Virus record (IMG/VR): IMGVR_UViG_3300045988_115891
Location: 1 to 35,841 of that record
DNA: 35,841 nucleotides
Reading direction: 5' to 3' (one strand)
Source: a virus
Under the pieces are notes generated by a model. That model was given only the letters and a program-made list of their open reading frames with translations, was not told the origin of the DNA and did no database searches. Of the stretch, positions 1 through 35,841 are shown piece by piece (within the stretch, counting starts at the first letter, position 1; every line of letters starts with the position of its first letter). The position numbers were made by a program, and so were the translations under genes.

Positions 1-55
1 AAGCTCCTGCGCTGTAAGTGTAACTCATAGGGTAACGGACAACGCCGCAGAAACG
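1..55. repeat. 55-bp terminal direct repeat, identical to 35787..35841 (circular-contig overlap)
   Basis: AAGCTCCTGCGCTGTAAGTGTAACTCATAGGGTAACGGACAACGCCGCAGAAACG occurs at both window ends. An ORF reads continuously across the junction. Confidence 0.95.
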
Positions 56-538
56 GCTATCCATTTCGAGACTTGAAACCTTGTCACGGAGAGCCTGTAT
101 CTCGTTGGTCTGAATGAGCGAACGAGTAGCCTCACCCTCTGCGTGAATTGCAGTAGTGATGTCGCAAGTCTGTCTGTCAATCTGCGCCGCAAGGTTTGCG
201 GTAGCAAGACGATTTTCGCAGCAGCAAGAAGCAAGCTGTTCTGAGAGATTTCTGCCCTCGGTTGTTACGTTTCTCTGCATTTCGTAGCCAAGATTGCAGA
301 TACCGTTACCGATATTAGTCAGGCGGTCGTTAATCTGTCCGAACTGCTGACCGAACAGAATTTCCTGCTGTGAAGCGGCTGTTGCGTACTGACCGAACTC
401 GCCCTGTCTGCCGAATCCGTTGCCGTTAAAGCCCCAGAAGAGGAACAGGAGAATGACCCACCATGCACCGTTACCACCGAATGCGCCGTCATTATCTTTT
501 GTAACGGCGGCGAGGTCTGATAAGCTGTAGTTATCCAT
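1..538 (-). CDS. 5' part of a 193-aa membrane protein with a Gly/Trp-rich N-terminal TM segment and a Cys-rich C-terminus. The gene wraps the window ends and continues at 35786..35743.
   Basis: ATG (complement 538..536) is preceded by AAAGGA. The frame is open to position 1 and it is missing from the ORF track because it runs off the edge. Hand translation: MDNYSLSDLAAVTKDNDGAFGGNGAWWVILLFLFWGFNGNGFG...ASCCCENRLA...FCGCNSCGCNNI, stop TGA at 35745..35743. Confidence 0.75.
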   Translation of the reverse strand, partial: MDNYSLSDLAAVTKDNDGAFGGNGAWWVILLFLFWGFNGNGFGRQGEFGQYATAASQQEILFGQQFGQINDRLTNIGNGICNLGYEMQRNVTTEGRNLSEQLASCCCENRLATANLAAQIDRQTCDITTAIHAEGEATRSLIQTNEIQALRDKVSSLEMDSRFCGVVRYPMSYTYSAGA

Positions 539-588: not shown

Positions 589-816
589 TTATTTCAAAAT
601 GTTTTGCAGGCTCTGCGCCTGCTGTTTTAACTGCTCAAACTGTGCCTGTGACATTTTGCCGCTGTTCAAAAGCTCCTGTACCATCTGCTGTGGATTTCGG
701 TTTCCGAGTTGCTTTTTGAACTCTGCAAAACGCTGTATCATACCAAGCGGATTGTTATTGCTGTTCGGCAGTTGCTGATTTACTCCGTTTAGTGCTTGTA
801 ATATCGGATTTGCCAT
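589..816 (-). CDS. hypothetical small Gln/Asn-rich protein (75 aa)
   Basis: ORF-track ORF. GGAGG lies 9 nt upstream of the ATG (complement of 826..830). It is tightly packed with its neighbours in the antisense cassette. Confidence 0.6.
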   Translation of the reverse strand: MANPILQALNGVNQQLPNSNNNPLGMIQRFAEFKKQLGNRNPQQMVQELLNSGKMSQAQFEQLKQQAQSLQNILK

Positions 817-1141
817 TTACTATTTCCTCCAGTCGTGATATTCTGCTTTCTAAGTCCTTCGTGTTGACGGGCGGTTCTGCCTGATAAGGTGTTATACTAT
901 ACGGGGTTATCGTCTTGTATCCTGCACCGTCAGACTGCACAAGCCATACTATCGGGGAGCTTTCGTCAAGAAGAAGTGCGGAACTGTTCGGGGCAAGCTG
1001 ATACGCCCTTGCTCCGTTCTCACCGTTTACCTTGACTATTTCCGAGCGTATCTGCGGTTGCATCGGCGAATTGAAAGAATTGCCGTATATGCTGTTAGGA
1101 TAGCCCTGCGGATATGCGTTGTAATTTTGATTGTAGTACAT
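755..1141 (-). CDS. hypothetical protein with a Tyr/Asn/Gln-rich N-terminus (128 aa); first gene of the antisense cassette
   Basis: ATG is preceded by GAGGAGGG (complement of 1149..1156). Its 3' end overlaps the next gene by 62 nt in another frame. Confidence 0.6.
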   Translation of the reverse strand: MYYNQNYNAYPQGYPNSIYGNSFNSPMQPQIRSEIVKVNGENGARAYQLAPNSSALLLDESSPIVWLVQSDGAGYKTITPYSITPYQAEPPVNTKDLESRISRLEEIVNGKSDITSTKRSKSATAEQQ

Positions 1142-1260
1142 ATTTATCCCTCCTCGAATTACAGTATATTACAATTTTTCACTGGATACAATGAACAAAG
1201 CGTGCAGTTTTTGACCGAATAAAAAAAATAAAAAAATATTAAAAAAATGCGAAAAAAGTA

Positions 1261-1289
1261 TTGACAAACGCTTGGGTTTGTGATATAAT
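1261..1289 (+). promoter_or_regulatory. sigma-A type promoter TTGACA-17-TATAAT with an A-rich upstream tract; paralogue of the promoter at 30323
   Basis: TTGACA 1261..1266, 17-bp spacer, TATAAT 1284..1289. The 11-bp palindrome TCTATTATAGA at 1289..1299 overlaps the -10/+1 region. Confidence 0.8.
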
Positions 1290-1346: not shown

Positions 1347-1598
1347 ATGAAAATTTACAGACTTCACGAAGCACAGGATAACACAAAGAACTACATCGTC
1401 CTCACAGATGGCGAGGGACTTGCAAAGATGATTGACTGGGATTTAAGCGAGGAAGAGGTTGAAGAGCTTGTTAAAGAGTTTGAGCAGGTCGGCGGTAGTC
1501 TTGAAAGCCGTGTAGAATGCGGTTGGATGGATGAAGATGATGTTTTCGGTGATACATTCGCTATAGAAGAACTTGGCTCAATCACGCAGTTAAAGTAA
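1347..1598 (+). CDS. hypothetical acidic early protein (83 aa)
   Basis: First ORF downstream of the consensus promoter. RBS AGAAAGGA is upstream of the ATG. Confidence 0.65.
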   Translation: MKIYRLHEAQDNTKNYIVLTDGEGLAKMIDWDLSEEEVEELVKEFEQVGGSLESRVECGWMDEDDVFGDTFAIEELGSITQLK

Positions 1599-1698
1599 GC
1601 TTGCTAACGCAGAACGACGCAGGGGCGAAAGCCCTTGTGGTAATGCGGCTAAGAACGGTCGTAAGCCCGTCAAGCAAGCATAAGAAAGGAGCGCTTTT

Positions 1699-2151
1699 AT
1701 GAGCGATAAGATGATATGCCTTGACTGCGGAACTGTATTTGACGCAAACGAGGTGGAAAGAGTACAGGAGTACCGTGGCGAGTGCTGGGGTCGCCCTGCA
1801 TACGAGGAAGAGTTGATATGCCCGCACTGCAAAAGCAGTGACATTGACGATGCAGAGGAGTGCGAAATCTGCGGCAGTTGGTGTTCGACAGAGGAACTGT
1901 ATGACAACGGCGGTCTTTGCACAGCTTGCCTTGAAACGTACAGCACAAATGAGGAGTGTTTCAAAGCGTGTGAGCGCAACAAAGACACGGAAAGCGTTGA
2001 GTTGAACTCTTACCTTGCGTATGTGTTCAGCGAGGACGAAATCGAGGACATACTGCTCGCAGAGCTGGCGAAGTCGGCAAACAGTACGACCGTTGCGAAG
2101 CTCCGTGAGGAGTTCGTCAAGGAAAACAGCTTCGTTTTCAGAAAGGGGTGA
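1699..2151 (+). CDS. zinc-ribbon (multi CxxC) protein, 150 aa
   Basis: RBS AAAGGAG. Motifs CLDCG...CPHC and CEICG...CTAC. Confidence 0.65.
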   Translation: MSDKMICLDCGTVFDANEVERVQEYRGECWGRPAYEEELICPHCKSSDIDDAEECEICGSWCSTEELYDNGGLCTACLETYSTNEECFKACERNKDTESVELNSYLAYVFSEDEIEDILLAELAKSANSTTVAKLREEFVKENSFVFRKG

Positions 2152-2155
2152 TAAG

Positions 2156-2323
2156 GTGAAAGAGAACAAGTTAAACTCACGACTTGTCCTGATAAGCGGT
2201 CTGTCGGTTCTTCCCGAGATTAAACGTATGCTTGAAGAAATCGCATTCCGCAAGGGCAAGACGCTTGTCGGGCTATTTCGTGAAGAAATAATTCCGATGT
2301 ATCTAAAAAAAGAAAGGAGATAG
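2156..2323 (+). CDS. small ribbon-helix-helix-like protein (55 aa, GTG start)
   Basis: This is the in-frame distal part of track ORF 2015..2323, whose upstream part overlaps the previous gene. GTG at 2156 follows AAAGGGG. The pattern is a short beta strand (SRLVLISG) followed by two helices. Confidence 0.4.
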   Translation: MKENKLNSRLVLISGLSVLPEIKRMLEEIAFRKGKTLVGLFREEIIPMYLKKERR

Positions 2324-4029: not shown

Positions 4030-4683
4030 ATGGCAACAACAAAAAAGGCAGAAGTAGTAGAGATTAAGCCTGTAGAGCTTAGAACAGTTATGTTAAAGAT
4101 AGTCGGCGACACGCCGCTGATAGTACACGCTTGGTCGGAGAAGGCAAAGCGTATGATGCTTGAAGCGCAGATGGGTCTTGCAAAGGGCAAGAAAAAGGAA
4201 GTCAAGAACCCTGTTGACGACTTTATCCAGTCGATGTACTGGCTGACCGACAAGCCCAAAGAAAGCACTGAGGAAGCTTTTATGCAGGCAATAAAGGGCG
4301 GAGCAAGGTTCGGCTTCCCTGCGACAGCGTTTAAGCAGTCGGCAATTTCAGCGGCATACAGGCTCGGATATGTTAAGGACAAGATGGGCTTAAGAGGAGC
4401 ATTCTTCATCAACGGCGATGAAAACGGTATGATTGAAATACATTCCGACACGCCGATTATGCGTGAGGATATGGTAAAAATCGGTATGGGTACAGCTGAC
4501 CTGCGTTATCGTGGCGAGTTCCGCAACTGGTGGGCTGAATTAAATATCAGCTACAATGCGAACGGCTCATTTTCGCTTGAAAACATTGTCAACATAATCA
4601 ACGCAGGAGGTTACGCTTGCGGTGTAGGTGAATGGCGTGTTGAAAAGGACGGTCAGAACGGTGCGTTTCACGTTGTAGGTTAA
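4030..4683 (+). CDS. conserved-looking phage protein of unknown function (217 aa)
   Basis: RBS AAGGAG and a non-repetitive globular sequence. I did not recognise any family. Confidence 0.6.
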   Translation: MATTKKAEVVEIKPVELRTVMLKIVGDTPLIVHAWSEKAKRMMLEAQMGLAKGKKKEVKNPVDDFIQSMYWLTDKPKESTEEAFMQAIKGGARFGFPATAFKQSAISAAYRLGYVKDKMGLRGAFFINGDENGMIEIHSDTPIMREDMVKIGMGTADLRYRGEFRNWWAELNISYNANGSFSLENIVNIINAGGYACGVGEWRVEKDGQNGAFHVVG

Positions 4684-4985
4684 TTTTTAGGTAGTCGTGG
4701 TTTGGCAGGTTAGGTGCGGCAAGGAGTGTTTGGGTGAGTTCCGTTAAGGCTCGGTTTGGCAGGTGGGGTTAGGCAAGGTGTGGCGAAGTTGGGTACGGTT
4801 TGGCAGGCATGGCAAGGCTCGTTCCGTTAAGGCTTGGCAAGGTTCGGCAGGTGGGGTCGGGTGAGGCAGGGTATGGCACGGAAAGGTTCGGCAGGTAAGG
4901 TCAGGTACGGTGAGGTCAGGTTGGGCATGGTGAGGCGGGCTCAGGTATGGCAGGCTCAGGTATGGCAGGCTTGGAAAGCCAAAAA
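4684..4985 (+). repeat. G+T-rich, C-poor degenerate repeat island (GGCAGG / GGCAAGG / AGGT motifs), non-coding
   Basis: I count 27 G vs 8 C in 4741..4800 and 28 G vs 8 C in 4861..4920, and 15 AGGT in total. GTTCCGTTAAGGCT occurs at 4738 and 4821. A 15-bp tandem GCTCAGGTATGGCAG occurs x2.3 at 4939..4971. Confidence 0.85.
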
Positions 4986-5004
4986 TCGAAAGGAGTTATT
5001 TTTT

Positions 5005-5484
5005 ATGGTCTACGAATGGAAAGATTTAGCGTCTGTGCGAAACATTAAGGCAGATGCACAGGTAGCAGGAGAAGTTTGCGAGGAACTGGAGCGAGAAGGG
5101 CGTTTAACGCCTGAAAATCTCGTTGAAGTGAGCAAAGACGAAAACGCACCGCTACATAACGAATTTGAATGGAATGATGCCACAGCGGCGAAGAAATACC
5201 GCCGTTCGCAAGCGCAGTTTATCATTCAAATGCTCGTTGTAAAATCGTCCGATGATGAGGAAGAAGAAAAGAAGCCGCCTGTAAGGGCGTTCTTCGCTAT
5301 CGACAGGGAACGCAGAAGTTATGAAAGTGTTGTGTCGATACTGGAAAGCAAGGATAAAACAGCTACTCTGCGTGAGCAGGTAGTTAAAGAACTTGCTTGC
5401 TTTTACGGCAAATATCAGGCAATTTTTGACGGCGATTTGGCGAAACTCGGCGAGGAGATACGCAATGTCATTACTCCCGATTGA
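5005..5484 (+). CDS. hypothetical protein (159 aa)
   Basis: ATG at 5005 is preceded by AAAGGAG (4989..4995). The upstream in-frame extension from 4834 is Arg/Gly/Trp low complexity read out of the repeat island. Confidence 0.65.
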   Translation: MVYEWKDLASVRNIKADAQVAGEVCEELEREGRLTPENLVEVSKDENAPLHNEFEWNDATAAKKYRRSQAQFIIQMLVVKSSDDEEEEKKPPVRAFFAIDRERRSYESVVSILESKDKTATLREQVVKELACFYGKYQAIFDGDLAKLGEEIRNVITPD

Positions 5485-10514: not shown

Positions 10515-11040
10515 AACAGACAACGCAAACCTCTCTCACAAGGTGTATCTGCGCAGAAAAGCAACGAAAGGCTTAAAAGAACTTTGTGTGTTGGATTGCT
10601 TTGCAGGCGAAAATCGTATATGGGGTAACTTCGATTGCAAAAAGTATTACGGTATAGAAAAAGTTAAAGGCAAGGGTAAAAACTTAAACGCCGACAACGA
10701 AAGAGTTTTAAAAAGTTTAGATTTGTCAAAATTTAACGTGATAGATTTAGACAGCTATGGTATCCCGGTTGCAAGTTTTTTGAACATATTTGAAAATCCG
10801 ACACTGAAAAAAGGAACTGTGATTATTTACACTTGCATAGGGAACGCAATGTCAGCACTCCCGAAAGGCTTGGTAAAATCGTTTGGTCTTACAAAAATGT
10901 ATCCGAAATGCCCCTCGCTCTTTAACAAAAGAGGTCACGACTTGTTTTACGGTTTGCTTTATGAGTACGGCGTGAGAAAAGTAACTGAGTACCGTGCTGA
11001 TACCAGTTTTGAAAAAACTTACGGCTTCTTCGTTTTTTAG
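10495..11040 (+). CDS. small class-I SAM-methyltransferase-fold protein
   Basis: Motif I-like VLDCFAGEN and a TRM1-like VIDLDSYG motif. It has a TTG start and overlaps the ParB-like gene by 20 nt. Confidence 0.5.
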   Translation: MTVHSIKTDNANLSHKVYLRRKATKGLKELCVLDCFAGENRIWGNFDCKKYYGIEKVKGKGKNLNADNERVLKSLDLSKFNVIDLDSYGIPVASFLNIFENPTLKKGTVIIYTCIGNAMSALPKGLVKSFGLTKMYPKCPSLFNKRGHDLFYGLLYEYGVRKVTEYRADTSFEKTYGFFVF

Positions 11041-11132: not shown

Positions 11133-11915
11133 ATGTCGATGATTTATGAACCCGCAGGAAAAGCAAGAGAGTACAGTCCTCTCGCACTCAACGTTTATTT
11201 AGGTTGTAGTCACAAATGCGAGTATTGTTACGCAAATGCGATGGCAAGAAGGAACGGAAACAGTTGTTATTTTGGAAATCCAAGCCCAAGAGCAAAGGTT
11301 CTTGAAACGCTTCCGAAAGAGCTTAAAAAGTGCAAAAGAGAACAGGTGCTTCTTTCGTTTATCGGTGATGCTTATTGCGAAACAACAGACGATAACGCAC
11401 TTACACGTTCTGTTCTTGAAATGCTTCTTGAAGCTAAAATGCCCGTTGCAGTTCTTACAAAAGGTGGAAAGCGTTGCCTTAAAGACCTTGACCTTTTTAA
11501 GCGCTTCGGCGAGCATATTCAGATAGGCGCAACACTTACGTTTGATAATGACGCTGATTCGCTCAAGTGGGAAAGCGGTGCGGCACTCCCGTCAGAAAGA
11601 CTTGAAACGCTTAAGATTTTGCACGATAACGGAATTAGAACATTTGTAAGCTTTGAACCTGTTATCGTTCCCGAGCAGAGTTTGCGTCTTATGGAGCAAA
11701 GCCTTGATTTTGTAGATGTTTATAAGGTCGGAAAGCTTAACAACTACAGAGGTCTTGACAAAGCTATAAACTGGACTGATTTTCTTGAGAAAACAGTAAA
11801 GCTTTTAAGAGAAAACAAAAAATCATTTTATATCAAACACGATTTAAGACTTGCCGCTCCGACCGTTAGACTTTACGGAAACGAAGTCCTTGCGGACGAA
11901 CACAATGTCCAGTAA
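11133..11915 (+). CDS. radical SAM enzyme, spore-photoproduct-lyase/DNA-repair-photolyase-like (COG1533-type)
   Basis: N-terminal LNVYLGCSHKCEYCYA contains the CxxxCxxC cluster in the context typical of SplB-like radical SAM proteins. RBS AAAGGAG. Confidence 0.65.
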   Translation: MSMIYEPAGKAREYSPLALNVYLGCSHKCEYCYANAMARRNGNSCYFGNPSPRAKVLETLPKELKKCKREQVLLSFIGDAYCETTDDNALTRSVLEMLLEAKMPVAVLTKGGKRCLKDLDLFKRFGEHIQIGATLTFDNDADSLKWESGAALPSERLETLKILHDNGIRTFVSFEPVIVPEQSLRLMEQSLDFVDVYKVGKLNNYRGLDKAINWTDFLEKTVKLLRENKKSFYIKHDLRLAAPTVRLYGNEVLADEHNVQ

Positions 11916-11925
11916 ATTGTTTTAT

Positions 11926-11956
11926 AGCGGTGGGCTTATAGCCTGCCGCTTTTTTA
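11926..11956 (+). terminator. intrinsic terminator after the radical SAM gene
   Basis: 10-bp stem 11926..11935 / 11941..11950 (two G-U pairs), 5-nt loop, then TTTTT. Confidence 0.6.
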
Positions 11957-11976
11957 TTTTAGGAGGAAAAATCACA

Positions 11977-12105
11977 GTGACGATTGACGAAGCAAAGGAA
12001 ATCATCAGAAAAACGAAAAGCCCGTATCTGAAAAGAGATATGGAGAAGTTTATTAAACGCACTCAGAAAAAGCTAAAAGAAAAAGTTTTGCAGAAAGGAG
12101 ATTAA
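11977..12105 (+). CDS. small basic protein (42 aa, GTG start)
   Basis: GTG lies 8 nt after AGGAGG. The track ORF start at 11851 would overlap the radical SAM gene and span the terminator. Confidence 0.4.
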   Translation: MTIDEAKEIIRKTKSPYLKRDMEKFIKRTQKKLKEKVLQKGD

Positions 12106-12108
12106 ACA

Positions 12109-12453
12109 ATGCCAAATGCACAGAATTTAAAGCCAGGAGCTTACAAGCTGTCAAAGGAAGAAATGGCGAAAGGTGGAAGAAACTCACATAAAAAGATGAG
12201 GGAGCGAAAGCTCCTTCGTGAGTGCCTTTCCGAACTTTTGCAGATGGAATATGACACGAAGCAAGGAAAGAAACTCGGCAGTGAAATGTTGTCGGCGATG
12301 CTGATGAAAAAAGCGATGAGCGGAGACATCAAGGCTTTTGAGGTTCTCCGTGACACAGCAGGAGAAAAGCCAGTTGATAAAGTTATGGTCGCAGATGTTG
12401 AAAAGACTATCATTGACGAAGTGGAAAAAATGGTAAAAGATGAAACCGATTGA
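12109..12453 (+). CDS. putative terminase small subunit
   Basis: 114 aa with a basic N-terminus, upstream of TerL. RBS AAAGGAG. The call rests on position and general resemblance only. Confidence 0.45.
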   Translation: MPNAQNLKPGAYKLSKEEMAKGGRNSHKKMRERKLLRECLSELLQMEYDTKQGKKLGSEMLSAMLMKKAMSGDIKAFEVLRDTAGEKPVDKVMVADVEKTIIDEVEKMVKDETD

Positions 12454-21869: not shown

Positions 21870-22147
21870 CTTCGGCTCTGCTCGATATGCCACGAAAGCT
21901 AAGCGTAAGGGGGCTGATTGCCGCAATGCCGATGATAATACAGCGGCAGAACGAGCAGTCAGCTTTTTGTAATTATATGGCTATGTGTGCGTTCAACGTG
22001 AATGAAATCGTTGCGAAAAGATACGGCGGAGCATATATGACAACGAAATATCACGATGTAATCAGCCCTCCGAAAGAGGAAAAACGCACAAGCGAAGAAG
22101 TCATAAACGGGATAAAGGAAAAGCTGAACGCACTCGGAGGTGATTAA
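21501..22147 (+). CDS. tail assembly chaperone G-T-like fusion made by a -1 programmed frameshift at 21833..21839
   Basis: The -1 frame is open from 21839 to the TAA at 22145..22147. The downstream ORF has no RBS of its own. Confidence 0.65.
21833..21839 (+). promoter_or_regulatory. -1 frameshift slippery heptamer U_UUU_UUC
   Basis: T TTT TTC is in the zero frame of 21501..21869 (codons AGT TTT TTC). Confidence 0.65.
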
Positions 22148-22649
22148 AATAAATTTATTTGAAATGTTTGTCAAAATCGGCGTTGACGACCAAGCAAGCG
22201 ATAAGATAAGCAAAATTTCTTCATCGCTGAAAAGTGGTCTTGCAAAGGCGGCTAAAGTTGGTGCGGCGGCTGTTACGGCGGCGGCTACGGCTATAGGTGT
22301 GCTTGCAAAGAAATCCCTTGATGCGTACGCCGATTTTGAGCAGCTGACGGGCGGTGTAGAAACGCTTTTTAAAACGTCTGCTGATACGGTAAAAAATTAT
22401 GCCGCAAACGCATACAAAACCGCAGGTTTATCAGCAAACGAATATATGGAAACTGTAACAAGTTTTTCCGCATCGCTGATACAATCCCTCGGCGGTGACA
22501 CGAAAAAAGCCGCTGAATATGCGAATACTGCGATAACCGATATGTCCGATAATGCGAACAAAATGGGTACGTCAATGGAGATGATTCAGAACGCATATCA
22601 GGGTTTCGCAAAGCAGAACTACACGATGCTTGACAACCTCAAACTGGGT
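22140..22649 (+). CDS. tail tape measure protein, exon 1
   Basis: The sequence ...NAYQGFAKQNYTMLDNLKLG ends at 22649. The 9 codons after it (RQKNMLLSA-stop) are intron sequence. The start is uncertain: GTG 22140 or ATG 22164. Confidence 0.8.
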
Positions 22650-22758
22650 AGACAAAAAAATATGCTTTTATCGGCATAACACCATTGCTCAGTATAAACC
22701 TTGTGAAAACGGTGAAACTCTTGCAAAGCAAGACAACACCGTGCAAAGTTTATTTTGC

Positions 22759-22787
22759 TTGACTTTCCGCCCGTAATATGTTAAAAT
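22759..22787 (+). promoter_or_regulatory. promoter TTGACT-17-TAAAAT inside the intron, upstream of the HNH ORF
   Basis: TTGACT 22759..22764, 17-bp spacer, TAAAAT 22782..22787. Confidence 0.55.
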
Positions 22788-22823
22788 AAAGTTAGCAAAT
22801 ACGAGGTGGAAAGGAAGAATAAA

Positions 22824-23327
22824 ATGTATTACAAAATTAAAGGTTTTGAAAATTACGGTATTAATCGAGATGGTGTTGTTTGCAACACAGATAATGGTGC
22901 CATCAAATCCCCTTATACAAACAAGTCAAACGGGTATTTGTATGTTGATTTATACAAGAGGAACAAGGCACACAAAAGACCGATTCACAGATTGATTGCA
23001 GAAACCTTTATCCCGAACCCCGAAAACAAACCGACCGTTGACCACATAAATGGCAACAGAACCGACAACCGAATTGAAAATTTGAGATGGGCAACATATA
23101 GTGAGCAAAACTCAAGATTTAACACGGTGGGAGTAAGAAGTGAAAAGGTTCTTGTCGTACACGAAAGTGGTAAAACAATGATGTTTGAAAAAATTACAGA
23201 TGTTGCCAACTATTTTGATTGCAATATAAGTAATATAAGCCAAATGCTTAAAAAAGGAACTTTTGGTAAGCGTGGAAAAACAAGGGGTTATAAATTTGAA
23301 TACATAAGGCAAAATAAAAATGTGTAA
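22824..23327 (+). CDS. HNH homing endonuclease (NUMOD4-like N-terminus plus HNH_3-type core)
   Basis: Motifs YKIKGFENYGINRDG... and VDHINGNRTDNRIENLRWAT. ATG at 22824 follows AAGGAAG; the track start (GTG at 22806) is less likely. Confidence 0.85.
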   Translation: MYYKIKGFENYGINRDGVVCNTDNGAIKSPYTNKSNGYLYVDLYKRNKAHKRPIHRLIAETFIPNPENKPTVDHINGNRTDNRIENLRWATYSEQNSRFNTVGVRSEKVLVVHESGKTMMFEKITDVANYFDCNISNISQMLKKGTFGKRGKTRGYKFEYIRQNKNV

Positions 23328-23483
23328 CGACTATCCCGAAAGGGAGTACAGCCAAGCGGCTGGAAGTGCAAGGCTCTGTTATCGGGAAACCGATAGCCAA
23401 AGAGATAGTCTGCTCTTTATGGTGACATAAAGCAGTTCATAAGAGAACGGGTACAGCGTAGCGAACTGTATCGAACATAAATG

Positions 23484-24890
23484 TATGGTGGCACTAAGGA
23501 AGAAATGGCTCGATTAATCGCTGACGCATCAAAAATGACCAATGTGCAAAAGGAACTTGGCGTAACGGTTGACGGTACGGATATGTCGTTTGCAAACATT
23601 GTAAACGCAATCCACGTTGTGCAAGCAAATCTTGACATTATGGGTACGACATCGAAAGAAGCGTCAACAACAATACAAGGCTCTATCAGCAGTATGAAGT
23701 CGGCGTGGGAAAATTTGCTTGTAGGCATAGCGGACGATAAGCAGGACTTCGGCAAGCTGATTGATAACTTTGTTGACAGCGTTGCAACGGTCGGTAAAAA
23801 CATAATGCCGAGGCTGAAGAAAATCCTTAAGGGAGTAGCAAAGCTAATAAAGGAAATCGTTCCCGAAGTGGCAAAAATGCTTCCCGAAATCGTAAACGAT
23901 ATTCTCCCCGACCTTGCAAATGCGGCGGTTGACATCGTTAAAGGGCTTGTTGACGCTTTAGTAGACAACGCAGACACGCTGTTAGATACCGGTATCAAAA
24001 TCCTTGACACGATAATCAACGGCATAATCGAATGTATACCAAAAATTAAAGATTTAATTCCCACGATTATAAACGCAATACTCCGCATAATTGATGTTTT
24101 AACAGAACACCTTGATGAGTTTATTGAGGGCGGTATACAGATAGCACTTGCGTTGTTAGACGGTATAATTCAAGCAGTACCGAAAATCCTTGAGAAGTTA
24201 CCCGAAATTTGCCAAAAAATAATTGACGGTGTTTTACAGGGCTTGTTCGGACTTGACGAAGGCGTGTCAAACACGTTCAGCACGGCTTTTGGGGGTGCCG
24301 TAGGTGGCGCGATTGAGATAATCAAGGGCATTTTATCGTTCTTAAACGGTGACTTTAGCACAGGACTTAAAAGTGCGGGCGAAGGTCTAAGCAATATTGT
24401 AGGCGGCGTTCTCGGAATCATTGACGGCTTGCTTGGAACAAGTTTGTCGCAATGGTATGACGATACAAGAGCATTTTTTAATCAATTTGGGCAGGATTTG
24501 TACAACATGACGCACCAGATGGAGCTTGCGAAACTTGAGGAAGGCGAACGTTTACAAGAGCAGACAAGCGGAGTAGGAATTACTGCAAACGAGTATATGC
24601 GACAGGGTTTAGCGGCGGCTGATGCTTTCGCAAAGGCTCTAAGCGATAAAGGCATAAACGAAGCGATATGGCAGGAAGCTGTTGAAAAGGGTATCGTCAC
24701 TTATGATGTAAACGAAGCGTACCAAACGTTAAAGGAGACAGGGCAGATAAAGACCGCAACAGCCGAAGGAACGTCAAATCAGATAAATGTGTCAATGAAA
24801 TTGCATAACGGTGTCGAGCTGGCAAGAGCGACAGCATATGATAATAGCAAGGCAAATCGTGTTGCGGGCAGGCAGATACCTGCGTACTAA
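23484..24890 (+). CDS. tail tape measure protein, exon 2
   Basis: It begins YGGTKEEMARLIADASKMT... in frame with exon 1 after splicing. The apparent ATG at 23481 consists of the last three intron nucleotides. The C-terminal part is repetitive and helical. Confidence 0.8.
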   Translation, partial: YGGTKEEMARLIADASKMTNVQKELGVTVDGTDMSFANIVNAIHVVQANLDIMGTTSKEASTTIQGSISSMKSAWENLLVGIADDKQDFGKLIDNFVDSVATVGKNIMPRLKKILKGVAKLIKEIVPEVAKMLPEIVNDILPDLANAAVDIVKGLVDALVDNADTLLDTGIKILDTIINGIIECIPKIKDLIPTIINAILRIIDVLTEHLDEFIEGGIQIALALLDGIIQAVPKILEKLPEICQKIIDGVLQGLFGLDEGVSNTFSTAFGGAVGGAIEIIKGILSFLNGDFSTGLKSAGEGLSNIVGGVLGIIDGLLGTSLSQWYDDTRAFFNQFGQDLYNMTHQMELAKLEEGERLQEQTSGVGITANEYMRQGLAAADAFAKALSDKGINEAIWQEAVEKGIVTYDVNEAYQTLKETGQIKTATAEGTSNQINVSMKLHNGVELARATAYDNSKANRVAGRQIPAY

Positions 24891-30031: not shown

Positions 30032-30241
30032 ATGAAAGCAGAAGATTTCGGCAAGAGCCGTTCCGAGTGGGAAAACCTGATTGACGAGTGGGTATTTTCT
30101 GAGCGTGACAGGCGTATTTTGAAGCTCCGCTTGCTTGACGGTCTGACTTATGAGCGGCTTGCAGAAGCGGTTGATATGTCGGTAAGGCAAGTCAAAACTA
30201 TCGTGTACCGTTGCGAAAAATTGCTGATAAAGCATATATGA
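30032..30241 (+). CDS. sigma-70 region-4-like HTH protein (69 aa), putative transcription regulator
   Basis: SERDRRILKLRLLDGLTYERLAEAVDMSVRQVKTIVYRCEKLL matches the region 4.2 HTH pattern. Confidence 0.6.
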   Translation: MKAEDFGKSRSEWENLIDEWVFSERDRRILKLRLLDGLTYERLAEAVDMSVRQVKTIVYRCEKLLIKHI

Positions 30242-32806: not shown

Positions 32807-32995
32807 ATGGATTTATTTCTCAAAATCGTGTACAGTCTGATTATGAACTTTATCTGCTTTTTTGCGGGCTATCTTGCTTGTCGGCAGGAAGAACAGCGTA
32901 AGCGTAGCGAAGCAAGTCGCAAGCTGATATTGCAGATAGCGGACGAACTGAAAAAACTTGAAAAGGAGAAGATGGACGATGAATGCAAGGGATAA
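32807..32995 (+). CDS. small membrane protein (62 aa)
   Basis: RBS GAGGTG. N-terminal hydrophobic segment. Confidence 0.45.
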   Translation: MDLFLKIVYSLIMNFICFFAGYLACRQEEQRKRSEASRKLILQIADELKKLEKEKMDDECKG

Positions 32996-33389
32996 GCTGT
33001 TACCGTGTACTTGTGGTGGAAATGGCATCACGGTTGACGCAGAACCGCCCAAGGAAGAACTGGAAAAGTACGAACGCTGGGGTTGCGGTCTGATAAGGCA
33101 TTACGCCGTCCGCTGTGATAAGTGCGGAAAACAGACAAATCCGTACACACTAAAGACACCCGCATATAAAGAGTGGAACAGATTTAACCGTGAGAAGTCC
33201 AAGTACAAGCTGTTTAACAGCAAGCAGAAAGCTATGGTAATGCGGCGCATAACGGCGATGTTAAAGGACGCAAGGGACGAATGTCCGAACGATGAAACTA
33301 TTAAGGGGTATGCGGAGGACTTATACAACGACATCCTTGTATCCGCTGAGAAAGGAGCAAGCGATGCCCGAAAAGCTGATAAAAAGTAA
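32979..33389 (+). CDS. Lar-family (restriction alleviation)-like zinc-ribbon protein with a C-terminal extension
   Basis: The pattern LLPCTCGG...AVRCDKCGKQT...TPAYKEWNRFN resembles the Lar family (CPFCGG...C..C...A...WN.R). ATG at 32979 follows AAGGAGAAG. Confidence 0.5.
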   Translation: MNARDKLLPCTCGGNGITVDAEPPKEELEKYERWGCGLIRHYAVRCDKCGKQTNPYTLKTPAYKEWNRFNREKSKYKLFNSKQKAMVMRRITAMLKDARDECPNDETIKGYAEDLYNDILVSAEKGASDARKADKK

Positions 33390-33819
33390 GCAACGTGTAA
33401 AAGACTTTGCGGAAGTGTTTACACCTAAGCACATCGTCAAGGATATGTGCGACCTCGTCCCCGAAGAGATGTGGACGAACATTGAAACGACGTTTTTAGA
33501 GCCTGCTTGCGGCACAGGAAACTTTCTCGCCGAAATCCTTGAGCGGAAGTTTAAACTGTGCGAAGACTGGGAAGATGGTCTACGGGCTTTGAAAAGCGTT
33601 TACGGTATGGATATACAACAAGACAATTGCGAGGAAACAAAGCAGAGGTTGTTCGATATGTATATAGCAAAGTTTCCGAAATCGCCTGCTGTATCGGGAT
33701 TGATAGCAGCGCAGATACTTGAAAACAACATCGTGTGCGGTGATTTTATCAAGGATTGGATGGACGAGATAGAAAAGAAAAAAGCAAAGAAAGAAGCGGC
33801 AAAAAGGAGTAAAAAATGA
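33364..33819 (+). CDS. N6-adenine-MTase-like SAM-binding half-domain lacking the catalytic (N/D)PP(Y/F) motif
   Basis: The motifs AEVFTP (motif X), LEPACGTGNFL (motif I), VYGMDIQ and IVCGDFI are followed by a Lys-rich tail and a stop. No NPPY/DPPY motif is present here or in the next ORF. Confidence 0.55.
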   Translation: MPEKLIKSKQRVKDFAEVFTPKHIVKDMCDLVPEEMWTNIETTFLEPACGTGNFLAEILERKFKLCEDWEDGLRALKSVYGMDIQQDNCEETKQRLFDMYIAKFPKSPAVSGLIAAQILENNIVCGDFIKDWMDEIEKKKAKKEAAKRSKK

Positions 33820-34139
33820 AAGCACGGATAGCAAGGAGCAACGTGCAGAGCGTGCAGAAAGAAATGGAAAAGGTTGCCATGCAAGAAGTGCTTGCGATTT
33901 ATCGTATGTGCATTGCGATAGCGTTAAACAAAAAATACCATTTTGGCAACGGCAGACTGAAAGAAGTGTTTGACGAAACTGACGATGTGCTAAAAAGATT
34001 TGACGGTTACGCAGGCGACATCAGCAAAGCAAAAGGATATAGCGACTTAGACACAGGGCGAGAAATGCTCGTCCAAGCGTTAGAAAGTCGTGGCATCGAC
34101 ATTGAACACGTTGCAGGGATAAAAATTGTTAAATTATGA
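33816..34139 (+). CDS. hypothetical protein (107 aa)
   Basis: RBS AAAGGAG; ATGA overlap with the upstream gene. Confidence 0.5.
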   Translation: MKARIARSNVQSVQKEMEKVAMQEVLAIYRMCIAIALNKKYHFGNGRLKEVFDETDDVLKRFDGYAGDISKAKGYSDLDTGREMLVQALESRGIDIEHVAGIKIVKL

Positions 34140-34151
34140 AATCAAAAATTA

Positions 34152-34172
34152 AGGGCTGAAAAAATCAGCCCT
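34152..34172. terminator. bidirectional intrinsic terminator between convergent gene blocks
   Basis: AGGGCTGA-AAAA-TCAGCCCT hairpin with an A-run upstream and a T-run downstream. Confidence 0.8.
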
Positions 34173-34178
34173 GTTTTT

Positions 34179-34481
34179 TTATTCGATTTCGTCAATCTTC
34201 CGCATCACCGAGTTGTAAAGCCGTTCGTTTGTCACCTTGATTACGTCCATCAGTTCGTCAATAACATCAAAGACCTTTACGCTGTTTTTATCCTCGACAG
34301 CCTTTAAAAAATCGGTTGTTCCCGATACTTCAAGCGGTGTTGCCTGCACGGAAGGAGCGTTACCGTTGAGATTTGCTCGGACGATATAAAGCCAAGCAAG
34401 ACGCTCAACAGTTGCCCAAGTGGTATCGTGATTTGTTTCAAGGTCTAAAATGTCCTTGTCGATAATATCAAGCGAAAGCAT
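34179..34481 (-). CDS. hypothetical protein (100 aa); last gene of the antisense cassette
   Basis: ORF-track ORF. GGGG-type RBS. There are 4 nt between the upstream stop and its start. Confidence 0.6.
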   Translation of the reverse strand: MLSLDIIDKDILDLETNHDTTWATVERLAWLYIVRANLNGNAPSVQATPLEVSGTTDFLKAVEDKNSVKVFDVIDELMDVIKVTNERLYNSVMRKIDEIE

Positions 34482-34485
34482 TTCA

Positions 34486-35040
34486 TCAACCCCGTTTCAT
34501 TTTGCTTTTGTACTTATCGTGAATTTCCTGCTGTTCGCAGTAGATAGTCGGCATATCGTAGTCAATGTTTGCAAGAGCAATGGCTTTTCGCTGTGCGGCT
34601 TTCAATTCGTGGTCTACGTCCTTGACAAGCTTTTTGATTTCGCAAGCTGTAGCGATTTCTCCGATTTCGTAAAGATTGCAAACCGCTTCCTCGTAAAGTT
34701 TCTTCGTTTCCTTTTCCCAGTCAACCCATTTTGAGAAACCGTCACGGACTGCCCTTTTCTTTGTTCCTGCGTCAACTTCTTGCCTGGTGTAGTTGTACCA
34801 GTTTTCGGGAATTGCTTTCGGATTTGCCGCCTTTTCCGCAAGCGGTAAGCGGTTGTGGTGATTGAGATAGTAACTCATCACTTTTCTGCGTGTCTTAAAC
34901 TCGCAAAGAGCGTGGTATTCGTGGCAGCGCTTGTAACCGTGCAAGTTTAAAAAGCCATAGTATTCGGCTAACTGGTCGTGGAACATTACGCCTTCAACCA
35001 AATGCGAATTTAGCTTTTCAAAAATTTCTGATACCGTCAT
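34486..35040 (-). CDS. ferritin/Dps-like four-helix-bundle protein (184 aa)
   Basis: LNSHLVEGVMFHDQLAEYYGFLNLHGYKRCHEYHA...KVMSYYLNH parallels the ferritin helix A/B pattern (LN..L..E......Y......L.G.......E..H). RBS GGAGGG. The metal ligands are only partly conserved. Confidence 0.4.
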   Translation of the reverse strand: MTVSEIFEKLNSHLVEGVMFHDQLAEYYGFLNLHGYKRCHEYHALCEFKTRRKVMSYYLNHHNRLPLAEKAANPKAIPENWYNYTRQEVDAGTKKRAVRDGFSKWVDWEKETKKLYEEAVCNLYEIGEIATACEIKKLVKDVDHELKAAQRKAIALANIDYDMPTIYCEQQEIHDKYKSKMKRG

Positions 35041-35236
35041 TTTTGCCCTCCAACAACTGTAATATTTTTGTTATCTTCTCGTCCTGCTCTGATAGGTGTC
35101 CGTGAATATCTTGAACCGCCGATTGTACAGTGTCATTTATTGTTGTTTGGTCTACGTTTTCGCCGTAGTTTAACAGCCCGACAATGAATGACACCATAGT
35201 GATAGCGTCAAGTAAATCGTATTGCTTTCCGTTCAT
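35018..35236 (-). CDS. small protein with an N-terminal hydrophobic helix and an acidic helix (72 aa)
   Basis: TAATG stop/start overlap with the upstream gene. It overlaps the downstream gene by 23 nt. Confidence 0.5.
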   Translation of the reverse strand: MNGKQYDLLDAITMVSFIVGLLNYGENVDQTTINDTVQSAVQDIHGHLSEQDEKITKILQLLEGKNDGIRNF

Positions 35237-35634
35237 TACAGTTTTACGACCGTCACGGCAAGGTTATTGACAACAGAAGCTGTGCCGCCGAGGACGAAAG
35301 ACAGTATAGAACTATCACAGCCGCAAGTATTGCGTACTACGGCAGTAATGCCGATGTTAGCTGTGCCGTTTAAAGCTACCGTCTGTGAGCCTGTCGCACC
35401 GATGATTGCAACACCGTCTTTCTGAGCGGTCACAGAAACTGTTCCTGCCGCAGTGGGAGAAACGGTCGCAGAAACGTTGATTAAGTAGTAGCCCTGTCCG
35501 TTAAGCGTGATTGCGTTACCGTCCTGCTTGATGTTGGGTCCGTATCTGCGAGAAGTAACCCCGACAGGGATAATGTCGCCGACTGCAACGGTCGGAGATG
35601 AAGTATTCGTTGTGTAGATTGTGCATTTACTCAT
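35236..35634 (-). CDS. BclA-C-terminal-domain / C1q-TNF-like jelly-roll protein (132 aa)
   Basis: It is beta-rich with ...DGNAITLNGQGYYLINVSATV... and ...LAVTVVKL, resembling exosporium BclA-CTD/ExsF-type domains. RBS AAAGGA. Confidence 0.45.
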   Translation of the reverse strand: MSKCTIYTTNTSSPTVAVGDIIPVGVTSRRYGPNIKQDGNAITLNGQGYYLINVSATVSPTAAGTVSVTAQKDGVAIIGATGSQTVALNGTANIGITAVVRNTCGCDSSILSFVLGGTASVVNNLAVTVVKL

Positions 35635-35658
35635 TTTACATTTTTCCTTTCAAAAACC

Positions 35659-35688
35659 AAAAAATTAAGGGGCGACTTTTGCCGCCCC
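35659..35688 (-). terminator. intrinsic terminator-like hairpin inside the antisense cassette
   Basis: On the minus strand: GGGGCGGCAAAAGTCGCCCC followed by TTAATTTTTT. Confidence 0.6.
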
Positions 35689-35716
35689 GTTGTAAGCCTC
35701 GCCAAGTAGGGCGTTA

Positions 35717-35742
35717 CCATTTTCGCGACCTCACGAAAATGG
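35717..35742 (-). other. 11-bp stem / 4-nt loop hairpin immediately after the stop of the wrapped gene
   Basis: On the minus strand: CCATTTTCGTG-AGGT-CGCGAAAATGG (one G-U pair). Confidence 0.6.
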
Positions 35743-35841
35743 TCAGATGTTGTTGCAACCGCAAGAGTTACAACCGCAGAAAGGAAAAGCTCCTGCGCTG
35801 TAAGTGTAACTCATAGGGTAACGGACAACGCCGCAGAAACG
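35743..35841 (-). CDS. 3' end of the wrapped Cys-rich membrane protein gene (same gene as 1..538)
   Basis: The frame continues from position 1 (=35787) as ...GAFPFCGCNSCGCNNI to TGA at 35745..35743. Confidence 0.75.
   Translation of the reverse strand, partial: RFCGVVRYPMSYTYSAGAFPFCGCNSCGCNNI
35787..35841. repeat. 55-bp terminal direct repeat, identical to 1..55
   Basis: Exact identity read from the sequence. Confidence 0.95.

Follow-up and report, generated by a model that had tools for sequence, protein, structure and literature searches.

A two-operon, seven-gene phage cassette with a membrane-anchored core recurs in distant phages, is partly dispensable and commonly adjoins lysis genes

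The viral record IMGVR_UViG_3300045988_115891 of IMG/VR, which we analysed over its full 35,841 nucleotides (nt; hereafter the window), carries a cassette of seven minus-strand genes, p1 to p7, in a genome whose other genes all point in the opposite direction. We show that this cassette consists of two operons with a membrane-anchored, Cys-rich core, that its gene order is maintained across very distant phages, and that it commonly lies close to lysis genes. Bases 1..55 of the window are identical to bases 35787..35841; we read this exact 55-bp terminal direct repeat as an assembly overlap, so that the window represents a circular contig with a true length of 35,786 bp. Across the circular junction the seven open reading frames (ORFs) run from 1141 to 34179, at the coordinates given in a preliminary description of this DNA, and the span 34179..35841 that it named is part of the cassette only. 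The 58 other credible ORFs, between 1347 and 34139, are all on the plus strand, and the signs of GC and AT skew flip only within 34001-35000 and 1-1000, so that ORF list and skew agree on the isolated minus-strand block first noted there. The idea that the cassette is an invertible segment was rejected, as no inverted repeats flank it, the longest being a 12-nt T-rich match.

The first operon opens with p1 (755..1141; 128 amino acids, aa), an ORF preceded by the ribosome-binding site GAGGAGGG, and continues with p2 (589..816; 75 aa), also preceded by a ribosome-binding site, and p3 (193 aa). Once the 55-bp overlap is removed, p3 spans the junction (538..1 joined to 35786..35743), with its N-terminal 179 codons in 1..538 and its C-terminal 14 codons and stop (FPFCGCNSCGCNNI) in 35743..35786. 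The second operon comprises p4 (35236..35634; 132 aa), p5 (35018..35236; 72 aa), p6 (34486..35040; 184 aa) and p7 (34179..34481; 100 aa), the last gene of the cassette. All of these lie on the minus strand; Shine-Dalgarno-like sequences precede six of the seven ORFs, and p5 is translationally coupled to the p4 stop. Genes p1 and p2 share 62 nt (755..816), read in different frames, and an overlap of about 50-60 nt is also found in distant relatives (e.g. loci L003 and L006 of the comparison given below), which suggests that the two genes are translationally coupled or that the p1 tail is under constraint. Genes p4 to p7 abut or overlap one another. The gap between p3 and p4, however, measures 108 nt and holds a strong intrinsic terminator (35669..35688, minus strand; GGGGCGGCAAAAGTCGCCCC then TTAATTTTTT, with an 8-bp stem containing seven GC pairs and a T-run). 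This terminator splits the cassette into two operons, p1-p2-p3 and p4-p7, so that the tight coupling previously ascribed to all seven genes holds for the p1/p2 overlap and for p4-p7 but breaks down at the p3/p4 boundary. A GC hairpin followed by a T-run occupies the same p3/p4 position, with differing hairpin sequences, in 53 of 128 distinct relatives, and locus L006 has terminators before p1, between p3 and p4 (10674-10699) and after p7.

At its downstream end the cassette is closed by the bidirectional intrinsic terminator reported previously at 34152..34172, which we detected on both strands and which also closes the convergent plus-strand genes. At the other end, a perfect sigma-70 promoter (TTGACA-17-TATAAT with TG) lies on the plus strand at 1261..1289. 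A scan of the minus strand 5' of p1 found neither a sigma-70 promoter at 9/12 consensus nor a -35 consensus. A candidate -10 element (TG plus TAATAT) at 1166..1173, 25 nt 5' of the p1 start codon, may nevertheless mark the p1 promoter, and in many relatives a terminator and then a TGnTATAAT-like element stand just 5' of p1. The cassette has clear terminators, and a -10-like element lacking a -35 is the only trace of a promoter of its own. Rfam detected no riboswitch or other RNA element within the cassette.

None of the seven proteins gave a significant match in Pfam, NCBIfam, PADLOC or single-sequence PDB searches, and PHROGs placed p1, p2 and p3 in three families of unknown function. The p1 protein (phrog_21718, function unknown) combines an N-terminus rich in Tyr, Asn and Gln with a short coiled coil and a small beta-rich core that is conserved (VNGxxGAxA...D..G); among the 2615 proteins of its family there is no named member and no Pfam domain, and neither a profile search of PDB nor a member-by-member Pfam scan returned a match. 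The p2 protein, which matches phrog_22984 at 6e-19, is Gln-rich and helical with a SHOCT-like C-terminal motif (weak SHOCT match, 0.024), and its slot is filled in relatives by two variants (107 and 40 loci) that are related to one another by hhalign at 87.7%. In p3 (phrog_16490) a Gly-flanked transmembrane segment (WWVILLFLFW) is followed by a helical region and a Q-x-A-x-CCC motif. It is thus a single-pass Cys-rich membrane protein; the preliminary description had already recognized a membrane protein with an internal CCC. The CCC motif is kept in 93-95% of 150 relatives, the third Cys is constant even in the remotest members, C107 is invariant across the Bacillota, Crassvirales and archaeal-virus members, and 128 of 150 family members have a Cys-rich tail (at least three Cys in the last 25 aa). 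Homologues of p3 number 3929 in a database clustered at 90%, with none named among the matches listed, and 1315 clusters at 50% identity. A profile search of PDB and a member-by-member Pfam scan gave nothing significant for this family; its best profile matches, to apolipophorin III (E 0.15) and the phiX174 H protein (E 1.8), were treated as what is probably generic coiled-coil noise.

Two of the four proteins of the second operon can be assigned a fold. Profile matches identify p4 as a predicted stand-alone BclA C-terminal domain, a C1q/TNF-like jelly roll, in agreement with the earlier assignment: 12 of 18 aligned family members match Pfam BclA_C (PF18573; best 7.9e-10), the family profile matches the BclA PDB chains 2r6q, 3twi and 1wck at 8e-5 to 2e-4 over about 100 residues, and the homologue in prophage locus L088 has a precomputed BclA_C match. 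Taken alone, the p4 sequence of the window gives no Pfam match. The domain begins at about residue 18, with no collagen GXX repeats and no signal peptide. In size and beta-strand pattern p4 is like the C-terminal domain of Bacillus anthracis BclA (PDB 1WCK, 2R6Q, 3TWI), from which it differs in being phage-encoded, in consisting of the domain alone and in occurring also in hosts that make no exosporium. The possibility that p4 is a BclA-type exosporium glycoprotein was rejected because the exosporium-targeting N-terminus and the GXX repeats are missing. The p5 protein consists of one hydrophobic helix (LLDAITMVSFIVGLLNY) and then a coiled coil, and its hidden Markov model (HMM) finds homologues in Clostridium perfringens phages at 2e-23.

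For p6, no sequence or profile match was found in searches that included a profile search of PDB. An AlphaFold2 model from a 37-sequence alignment (pLDDT, the predicted local distance difference test, 95.2; pTM, the predicted template-modelling score, 0.90) has four long helices and a fifth. The best 50 Foldseek matches of this model in PDB are all ferritins or bacterioferritins (TM-score 0.70-0.86), and the best matches in BFVD are gut siphophage proteins labelled Dps/NAP-like or ferritin. The model thus assigns p6 a ferritin fold. With ferritins and Dps proteins (Escherichia coli FtnA, 1EUM; Pyrococcus furiosus, 2X17) it shares the four-helix bundle, the long B-C loop and the fifth helix, and with a gut siphophage protein named after neutrophil-activating protein in BFVD it superposes at TM-scores of 0.83/0.90 and a root-mean-square deviation of 1.8 Å. 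It differs from ferritins and Dps proteins in that identity is 11-18% and the E / ExxH / E / ExxH pattern is not kept. Conservation does not extend to the canonical ferroxidase ExxH; the family consensus has Lys in place of E16, and no His stands three residues after E47. Six invariant residues (H13, H21, E47, E109, E128 and E145) lie mid-helix, and a metal site is plausible from this conservation. Of the CotF/CotJ-type ferritin-like protein proposed previously, the ferritin fold is upheld and the coat-protein kinship is not, since the structural neighbours are ferritins and Dps-like proteins and not Mn-catalases of the CotJC type. Named relatives of p6 come from Ruthenibacterium lactatiformans and Oscillospiraceae. 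The p7 protein is helical with a conserved C-terminal motif (DELM...NxRLYNxVMRK), and p7-like genes, whose hhalign probability against p7 is 100%, occur 1-2 kb downstream of p3 in distant loci. Representative p2, p5, p7 and p4c sequences belong to no Pfam family, and as far as sequence comparison reaches p1, p2, p5 and p7 appear to be without a characterized relative.

We then compared the cassette with its relatives in 80 IMG/VR loci, 80 loci from genome collections and several GenBank phages. The order and strand of p1-p2-p3 and of the protein in the p4 slot are constant across the compared loci (about 150); p3 was counted in 166 loci and p1 in 146, 5' of p3, while the p4 slot holds a BclA_C protein, a BclA_C-related variant or a Cys-rich beta protein (83, 34 and 31 loci). 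What follows p4 varies: p5-p6-p7, DUF7841 (48 loci), a 103-aa rubrerythrin-like protein (35), an Arg/Tyr-rich protein (31) or a p7-like gene. A set of six or seven genes recurs in the close relatives L005-L008, L042 and L049 and in prophage L086, and all seven genes are found in prophage contigs L086-L088, p4 being called in L088. Family HMMs found all seven genes in the C. perfringens phages vB_CpeS-17DYC and HMD-PC1, with the order of p6 and p7 swapped, so that the genes do co-occur elsewhere as a unit.

In these relatives the cassette has a usual place. The gene directly 5' of p1 in about 100 loci encodes a helix-turn-helix (HTH) protein of 70-90 aa, of the sigma-70 region-4/GerE type, and endolysins of six Pfam types are encoded 1.7-2.9 kb upstream on the same strand in at least 77 Bacillota-phage loci, accompanied by holins and XhlA-like genes. 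The cassette runs in the direction of the upstream genes in about 65 loci and antisense to them in 12, which include the nearest relatives of the window. A tyrosine integrase follows it convergently in 58 loci, and in prophages within long contigs it is the last phage block before host genes. The temperate relative MT835537 illustrates the arrangement, with a tail fibre, holin, amidase, small HTH gene, p1-p4 and DUF7841 followed by a convergent integrase and CI-like repressor. In the window itself the XhlA-like/holin/M23 set is present, and a small sigma-70 region-4/GerE-type HTH gene (30032..30241, plus strand) stands just after the lysis genes. This gene belongs to the same cluster as the HTH gene found 5' of p1 in relatives (HMM 1.6e-34); it has a weak precomputed Sigma70_r4 match, and its sister clusters match GerE and Sigma70_r4_2. 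About 4 kb of small early-type genes lie between this set and the inverted cassette. The cassette of the window is thus inverted and displaced by about 4 kb, adjoining the early promoter.

Whether the cassette is essential can be judged from C. perfringens siphophages, in which its patchiness was examined; a search with the VapE primase for distant whole-phage relatives of the window yielded only four near-identical contigs. These siphophages, with flanking DNA that is 93-97% identical, form two groups. Six carry the cassette (17DYC, HMD-PC1, CPD1, XP41-N3, PMQ04 and CPQ4), and phiCP39-O, 26F, 9O, 13O and 34O are without p1-p5 and the 5' part of p7, and keep a truncated p7 and a p6 homologue. 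The flanks of these five match those of 17DYC at 96% identity. In phiCP39-O this homologue is gp45 (L180 3734..4261), which carries the GenBank note 'contains ferritin domain' and adjoins the p7 remnant gp44. Phages of this group were isolated as plaque formers in virulent-phage screens, and 17DYC has no annotated integrase. The existence of plaque-forming siblings without p1-p5 shows that p1-p5 are dispensable for lytic growth and patchy among close relatives; the cassette is therefore accessory and p6 is separable from p1-p5.

The preliminary description placed the cassette in the position of a lysogeny module while seeing no integrase or repressor in the window. The absence was borne out: Pfam annotates the scanned neighbouring genes of the window as VapE primase, DnaG zinc ribbon, ERCC4, ParB_N, two N6/N4 methylases, radical-SAM, YopX and an M23 endolysin, with no recombinase or repressor among them; tblastn of the window with integrase and CI-like clusters from 59 related loci gave no match; and the seven cassette proteins match no integrase or repressor family. 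The substitution for a lysogeny module was not, since in temperate relatives the cassette stands next to integrase and repressor genes and points the same way as the late genes. A tie to lysogeny likewise found no support, all seven genes being present in C. perfringens phages that have no annotated integrase and come from virulent-phage screens.

The core of the cassette extends far beyond these phages. Relatives of p3 with 73-80% identity occur in long prophage-bearing contigs of Dysosmobacter, which is probably close to the host of the window phage, and other p3-bearing contigs are assigned to Acutalibacteraceae, Blautia, Eubacterium, Erysipelotrichaceae, Bacilli and Mollicutes/Anaeroplasmatales metagenome-assembled genomes (MAGs). 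Unexpectedly, genuine homologues were also found in many Crassvirales, in phage C3_41T2LP of Bacteroides uniformis and in Caudoviricetes that are assigned to Methanomassiliicoccales, and these have the same transmembrane segment, QCCC motif and CGCGC tail. In five Crassvirales genomes p3 lies within or beside the lysis cluster (holin, LysB/FtsL-like protein and L,D-transpeptidase-type endolysin). The Crassvirales gene directly 5' of p3, annotated as 'sigma factor/ubiquitin-like', is homologous to the DUF7841 gene of Bacillota cassettes (hhalign 99.8%, E 4e-29), and this DUF7841 link alone was significant, as Crassvirales ORFs downstream of p3 gave nothing above 30% in hhalign against p1, p4 and p7. 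Phages of two bacterial phyla therefore share at least two components as well as the lysis-gene neighbourhood. Viruses with p3 infect monoderm bacteria, diderm bacteria and archaea, a spread suggesting that p3 acts at the cytoplasmic membrane. Two further observations concern the surroundings of p3 in these distant genomes. Under translation table 11, Crassvirales genes beside p3 contain in-frame stops in L182 (cr52_1) and L185 (cr109_1), at ORFs 1676..2314 and 4398..5033, which is consistent with the stop-codon recoding of some crAss-like phages. Reverse-transcriptase genes lie 1-2 kb upstream of p3 in L171 (3152..4186; archaeal virus vir215) and L182 (1..985; cr52_1); the former may be of the diversity-generating retroelement type and the latter is annotated as an intron reverse transcriptase.

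Because the cassette is dispensable and terminator-bounded, has a membrane-anchored Cys-rich core and is positioned after the holin, endolysin and HTH genes, we favour, tentatively and as a candidate still short of probable, the reading that it is a very late accessory module, associated with the membrane and active around lysis or egress. Its usual place, on this reading, is the very end of the late operon, and the small HTH gene is the candidate activator of the cassette. The products of p1-p2-p3 would probably assemble at the cytoplasmic membrane on p3. The intrinsic terminator between p3 and p4 would let only some transcripts into p4-p7 and so set the ratio of the core to the p4-p7 products, with the second operon supplying the BclA_C/TNF-like p4, the hydrophobic-helix p5, the probably metal-binding, ferritin-fold p6 and the helical p7. 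Such a cassette could tune the timing or completion of lysis, or could condition the membrane or the released progeny. A broader and somewhat doubtful proposal is that a p3-centred module, with p1/p2, a small beta-rich protein and DUF7841 or ferritin-like partners, is an ancient component of phage exit common to Clostridia siphophages, Bacteroidales Crassvirales and tailed viruses of gut methanogens. Whatever the type of envelope, such a module would work at the cytoplasmic membrane, for instance by controlling, in a thiol- or metal-dependent way, when or how the cell is opened.

Several observations weigh against a role at lysis or egress. The argument for it comes from gene neighbourhood and from no other source; in the window 4.5 kb separate the lysis genes from the cassette, which is antisense to them, and in the C. 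perfringens phages and Bacteroides phage C3_41T2LP it lies nearer to recombination genes. The terminator and promoter-like -10 found between cassette and lysin in many relatives indicate that it is not simply part of the lysis operon. Searches of the cassette proteins against Pfam, PHROGs, NCBIfam and PDB gave no match to a known holin, antiholin, spanin or XhlA/BhlA protein, and we know of no lysis role for ferritin-fold or BclA_C proteins. The AlphaFold2 model of p3, from a shallow alignment of 44 sequences, has a pLDDT of 42, from which no fold can be inferred, and the charge bias of the protein (net -3 in the N-terminal segment, net -1 after the transmembrane segment) leaves its topology unsettled. 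Accessory lysis proteins such as PBSX XhlA, lambda Rz/Rz1, P2 LysA/B/C and T4 RI/RIII offer a partial precedent. Like them, the cassette adjoins holin and endolysin genes and is dispensable in the laboratory, and p3 would share their N-terminal anchor, helical or coiled-coil domain and conserved Cys. It differs from them in having no sequence or profile similarity to them and no lipoprotein partner, and in including ferritin-fold and TNF-like proteins. Monoderm hosts need no spanins, and the cassette also differs from spanins in being present in such hosts.

The membrane anchor and dispensability of the cassette would equally suit superinfection exclusion or competition between phages, in which p3 with p1 and p2 in the membrane would block DNA entry or abort infection by other phages and the genes would be expressed from their own promoter, as a moron. 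Flanking terminators, the -10-like element before p1 in many relatives, the location at the prophage end adjoining the integrase or att site, the presence in temperate and integrase-less phages alike and the antisense orientation in the window all fit such a role. We consider it unlikely, because synteny of seven genes across very distant phages is unusual for exclusion or defence genes, which are normally patchy single genes; because six of the seven proteins have no signal peptide or membrane anchor; and because the tight link to Crassvirales lysis genes would be left unexplained. Defence, the alternative offered in the preliminary description, found no backing in PADLOC (PADLOC-DB 2.0), where no model matched and the sole match, at 0.058, is at chance level; superinfection exclusion is the form in which we keep it as a rival. 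The membrane exclusion proteins known from other phages, lactococcal Sie2009, Streptococcus thermophilus Ltp and T4 Imm/Sp, are products of single genes that usually lie between integrase and repressor. The cassette is like them in its small membrane-anchored protein, its accessory position and, in the window, its antisense orientation to the lytic genes, and unlike them in being a conserved set of four to seven genes without homology to them. A distinctly unlikely alternative, in our view, is redox or metal handling for phages of strict anaerobes, in which ferritin- or rubrerythrin-like proteins and the Cys-rich p3 would, either while infection proceeds or in the lysogen, buffer iron or reactive oxygen. 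The ferritin fold of p6 with its invariant mid-helix His and Glu, the rubrerythrin-like protein in the same slot of 35 loci, the retention of the p6 homologue in phiCP39-O even without p1-p5 and the strongly conserved Cys clusters of p3 speak for it, as do hosts that are nearly all gut or rumen anaerobes (Bacillota, Bacteroidota) or methanogenic archaea, with few MAG bins labelled otherwise. This anaerobe bias may, however, stem from the sampling of gut metagenomes. Moreover, the canonical ExxH of p6 is not conserved, the ferritin-like slot is variable and often empty or filled by DUF7841 or the Arg/Tyr-rich protein, and p1, p2, p4 and p7 have no redox signature.

Host conversion of the spore or cell surface through BclA-like, coat-like Cys-rich and Tyr/Gln-rich proteins, the reading first put forward for this cassette, now appears highly improbable. 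It is true that p4 is by its profile matches a genuine BclA_C-family protein, that the upstream regulator type matches the Pfam 'GerE' HTH, that p1 and p3 are coat-like in composition and that some hosts sporulate (C. perfringens and many Clostridia). Yet Pfam GerE is a generic LuxR-type HTH family, p4 has no collagen repeats, exosporium-targeting N-terminus or signal peptide, and the neighbours of p6 are ferritins and not CotJC-type catalases. The seven genes also occur in C. perfringens phages that are integrase-less by annotation and belong to a group described as virulent. Further, p3 and DUF7841 are found in viruses of Crassvirales, Bacteroides and Methanomassiliicoccales, whose hosts do not sporulate, and p3 also in contigs of Erysipelotrichaceae, Mollicutes and Anaeroplasmatales. 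Since components and lysis neighbourhood are common across phyla, a spore-specific role of the core is ruled out. We assign an equally slight chance to a role of the proteins in the virion, such as a fibre or decoration formed by p3 and p4 and encoded outside the structural block. BclA_C/TNF-like trimers are typical of fibre heads, the cassette is co-directional with late genes in most relatives, and Crassvirales homologues of p3 have been labelled 'spike protein' or 'viral fiber' by other annotators. These labels, however, rest on non-significant coiled-coil similarity (profile search E >= 0.15), and the generic nature of that similarity probably explains them; p3 has a transmembrane segment, sibling phages without p1-p5 form plaques, and the cassette of the window is antisense to the structural genes. 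The probability left over from the favoured lysis or egress reading and these four rivals belongs to something else.

In its organization the cassette behaves like a known kind of feature, the moron or accessory operon situated between lysis genes and integrase. Morons and lysogenic-conversion cassettes at the junction of lysis genes and att site are a concept of Hendrix and colleagues, exemplified by toxin genes of Streptococcus pyogenes and Staphylococcus aureus prophages. The cassette is like them in its place after the lysis genes at the prophage end, its bounding terminators, promoter-like element and variable cargo tail, and its dispensability. It differs in that a multigene order is kept across very distant phages, including integrase-less phages, Crassvirales and archaeal viruses. 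The core families p1, p2, p3, p5, p7 and DUF7841 are uncharacterized, and a literature search on the PHROG identifier, DUF7841 and BclA or ferritin in phage conversion returned nothing relevant, the cross-phylum conservation and lysis linkage being undescribed there. These families are large and wholly unannotated (about 3900 proteins for p3 and about 2600 for p1); their range takes in the dominant phage groups of the human gut, Crassvirales among them, and extends to archaeal viruses. The cassette is common to thousands of gut phages. Their steady association with lysis genes in two phyla suggests an undescribed step of phage exit or a very late accessory function. A natural experiment is available in cultivable C. 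perfringens phages that are near-isogenic and either carry the cassette (17DYC, HMD-PC1, CPD1) or have no p1-p5 (phiCP39-O, 26F). For annotation, the 'spore-conversion/lysogeny' label is removed and two secure fold predictions are added, BclA_C-type for p4 and ferritin-type for p6.

Other features of the window lie outside the cassette. The radical-SAM gene (11133..11915, plus strand), previously described as SPL-like, matches Pfam Radical_SAM (8e-14) and, weakly, DUF5131 (8.5e-6), and no specific evidence of a spore-photoproduct lyase was found. A pairing of this gene at 11133 with the Cys-rich tail of p3 in a system for ribosomally synthesized and post-translationally modified peptides was considered and rejected, as the two lie 10 kb apart and are unlinked in other loci. 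The methylase region (32958..33819, plus strand) contains two overlapping ORFs, 32958..33389 and 33292..33819, and the near-identical Logan contig L005 has a single N6/N4 DNA methylase ORF of 245 aa (11532..12269); a frameshift, phase variation or a sequencing error could account for the split in the window. A self-cleaving ribozyme of the Type-P5 twister class occupies 1608..1670 (plus strand), in the space that separates the first two early genes (1347..1598 and 1699..2151) a short way past the perfect early promoter; it matches Rfam RF02684 over the full model length with 48.1 bits against a gathering threshold of 37.6. Finally, the tape-measure gene is apparently split into ORFs 22140..22679 and 23481..24890 (plus strand), with an HNH/NUMOD endonuclease ORF and a group-I-intron-like RNA between them; the segments of note there are 22709..22793, 22806..23327 and 23207..23432, all on the plus strand. 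The Rfam Intron_gpI match in this region scores 31.7 bits, below the gathering threshold of 50, with a local E of 5e-6, and the segment 23319..23480 has DNA matches of 78-93% in unrelated Pectobacterium, Klebsiella, Escherichia and Xanthomonas phages, as expected for a mobile intron.

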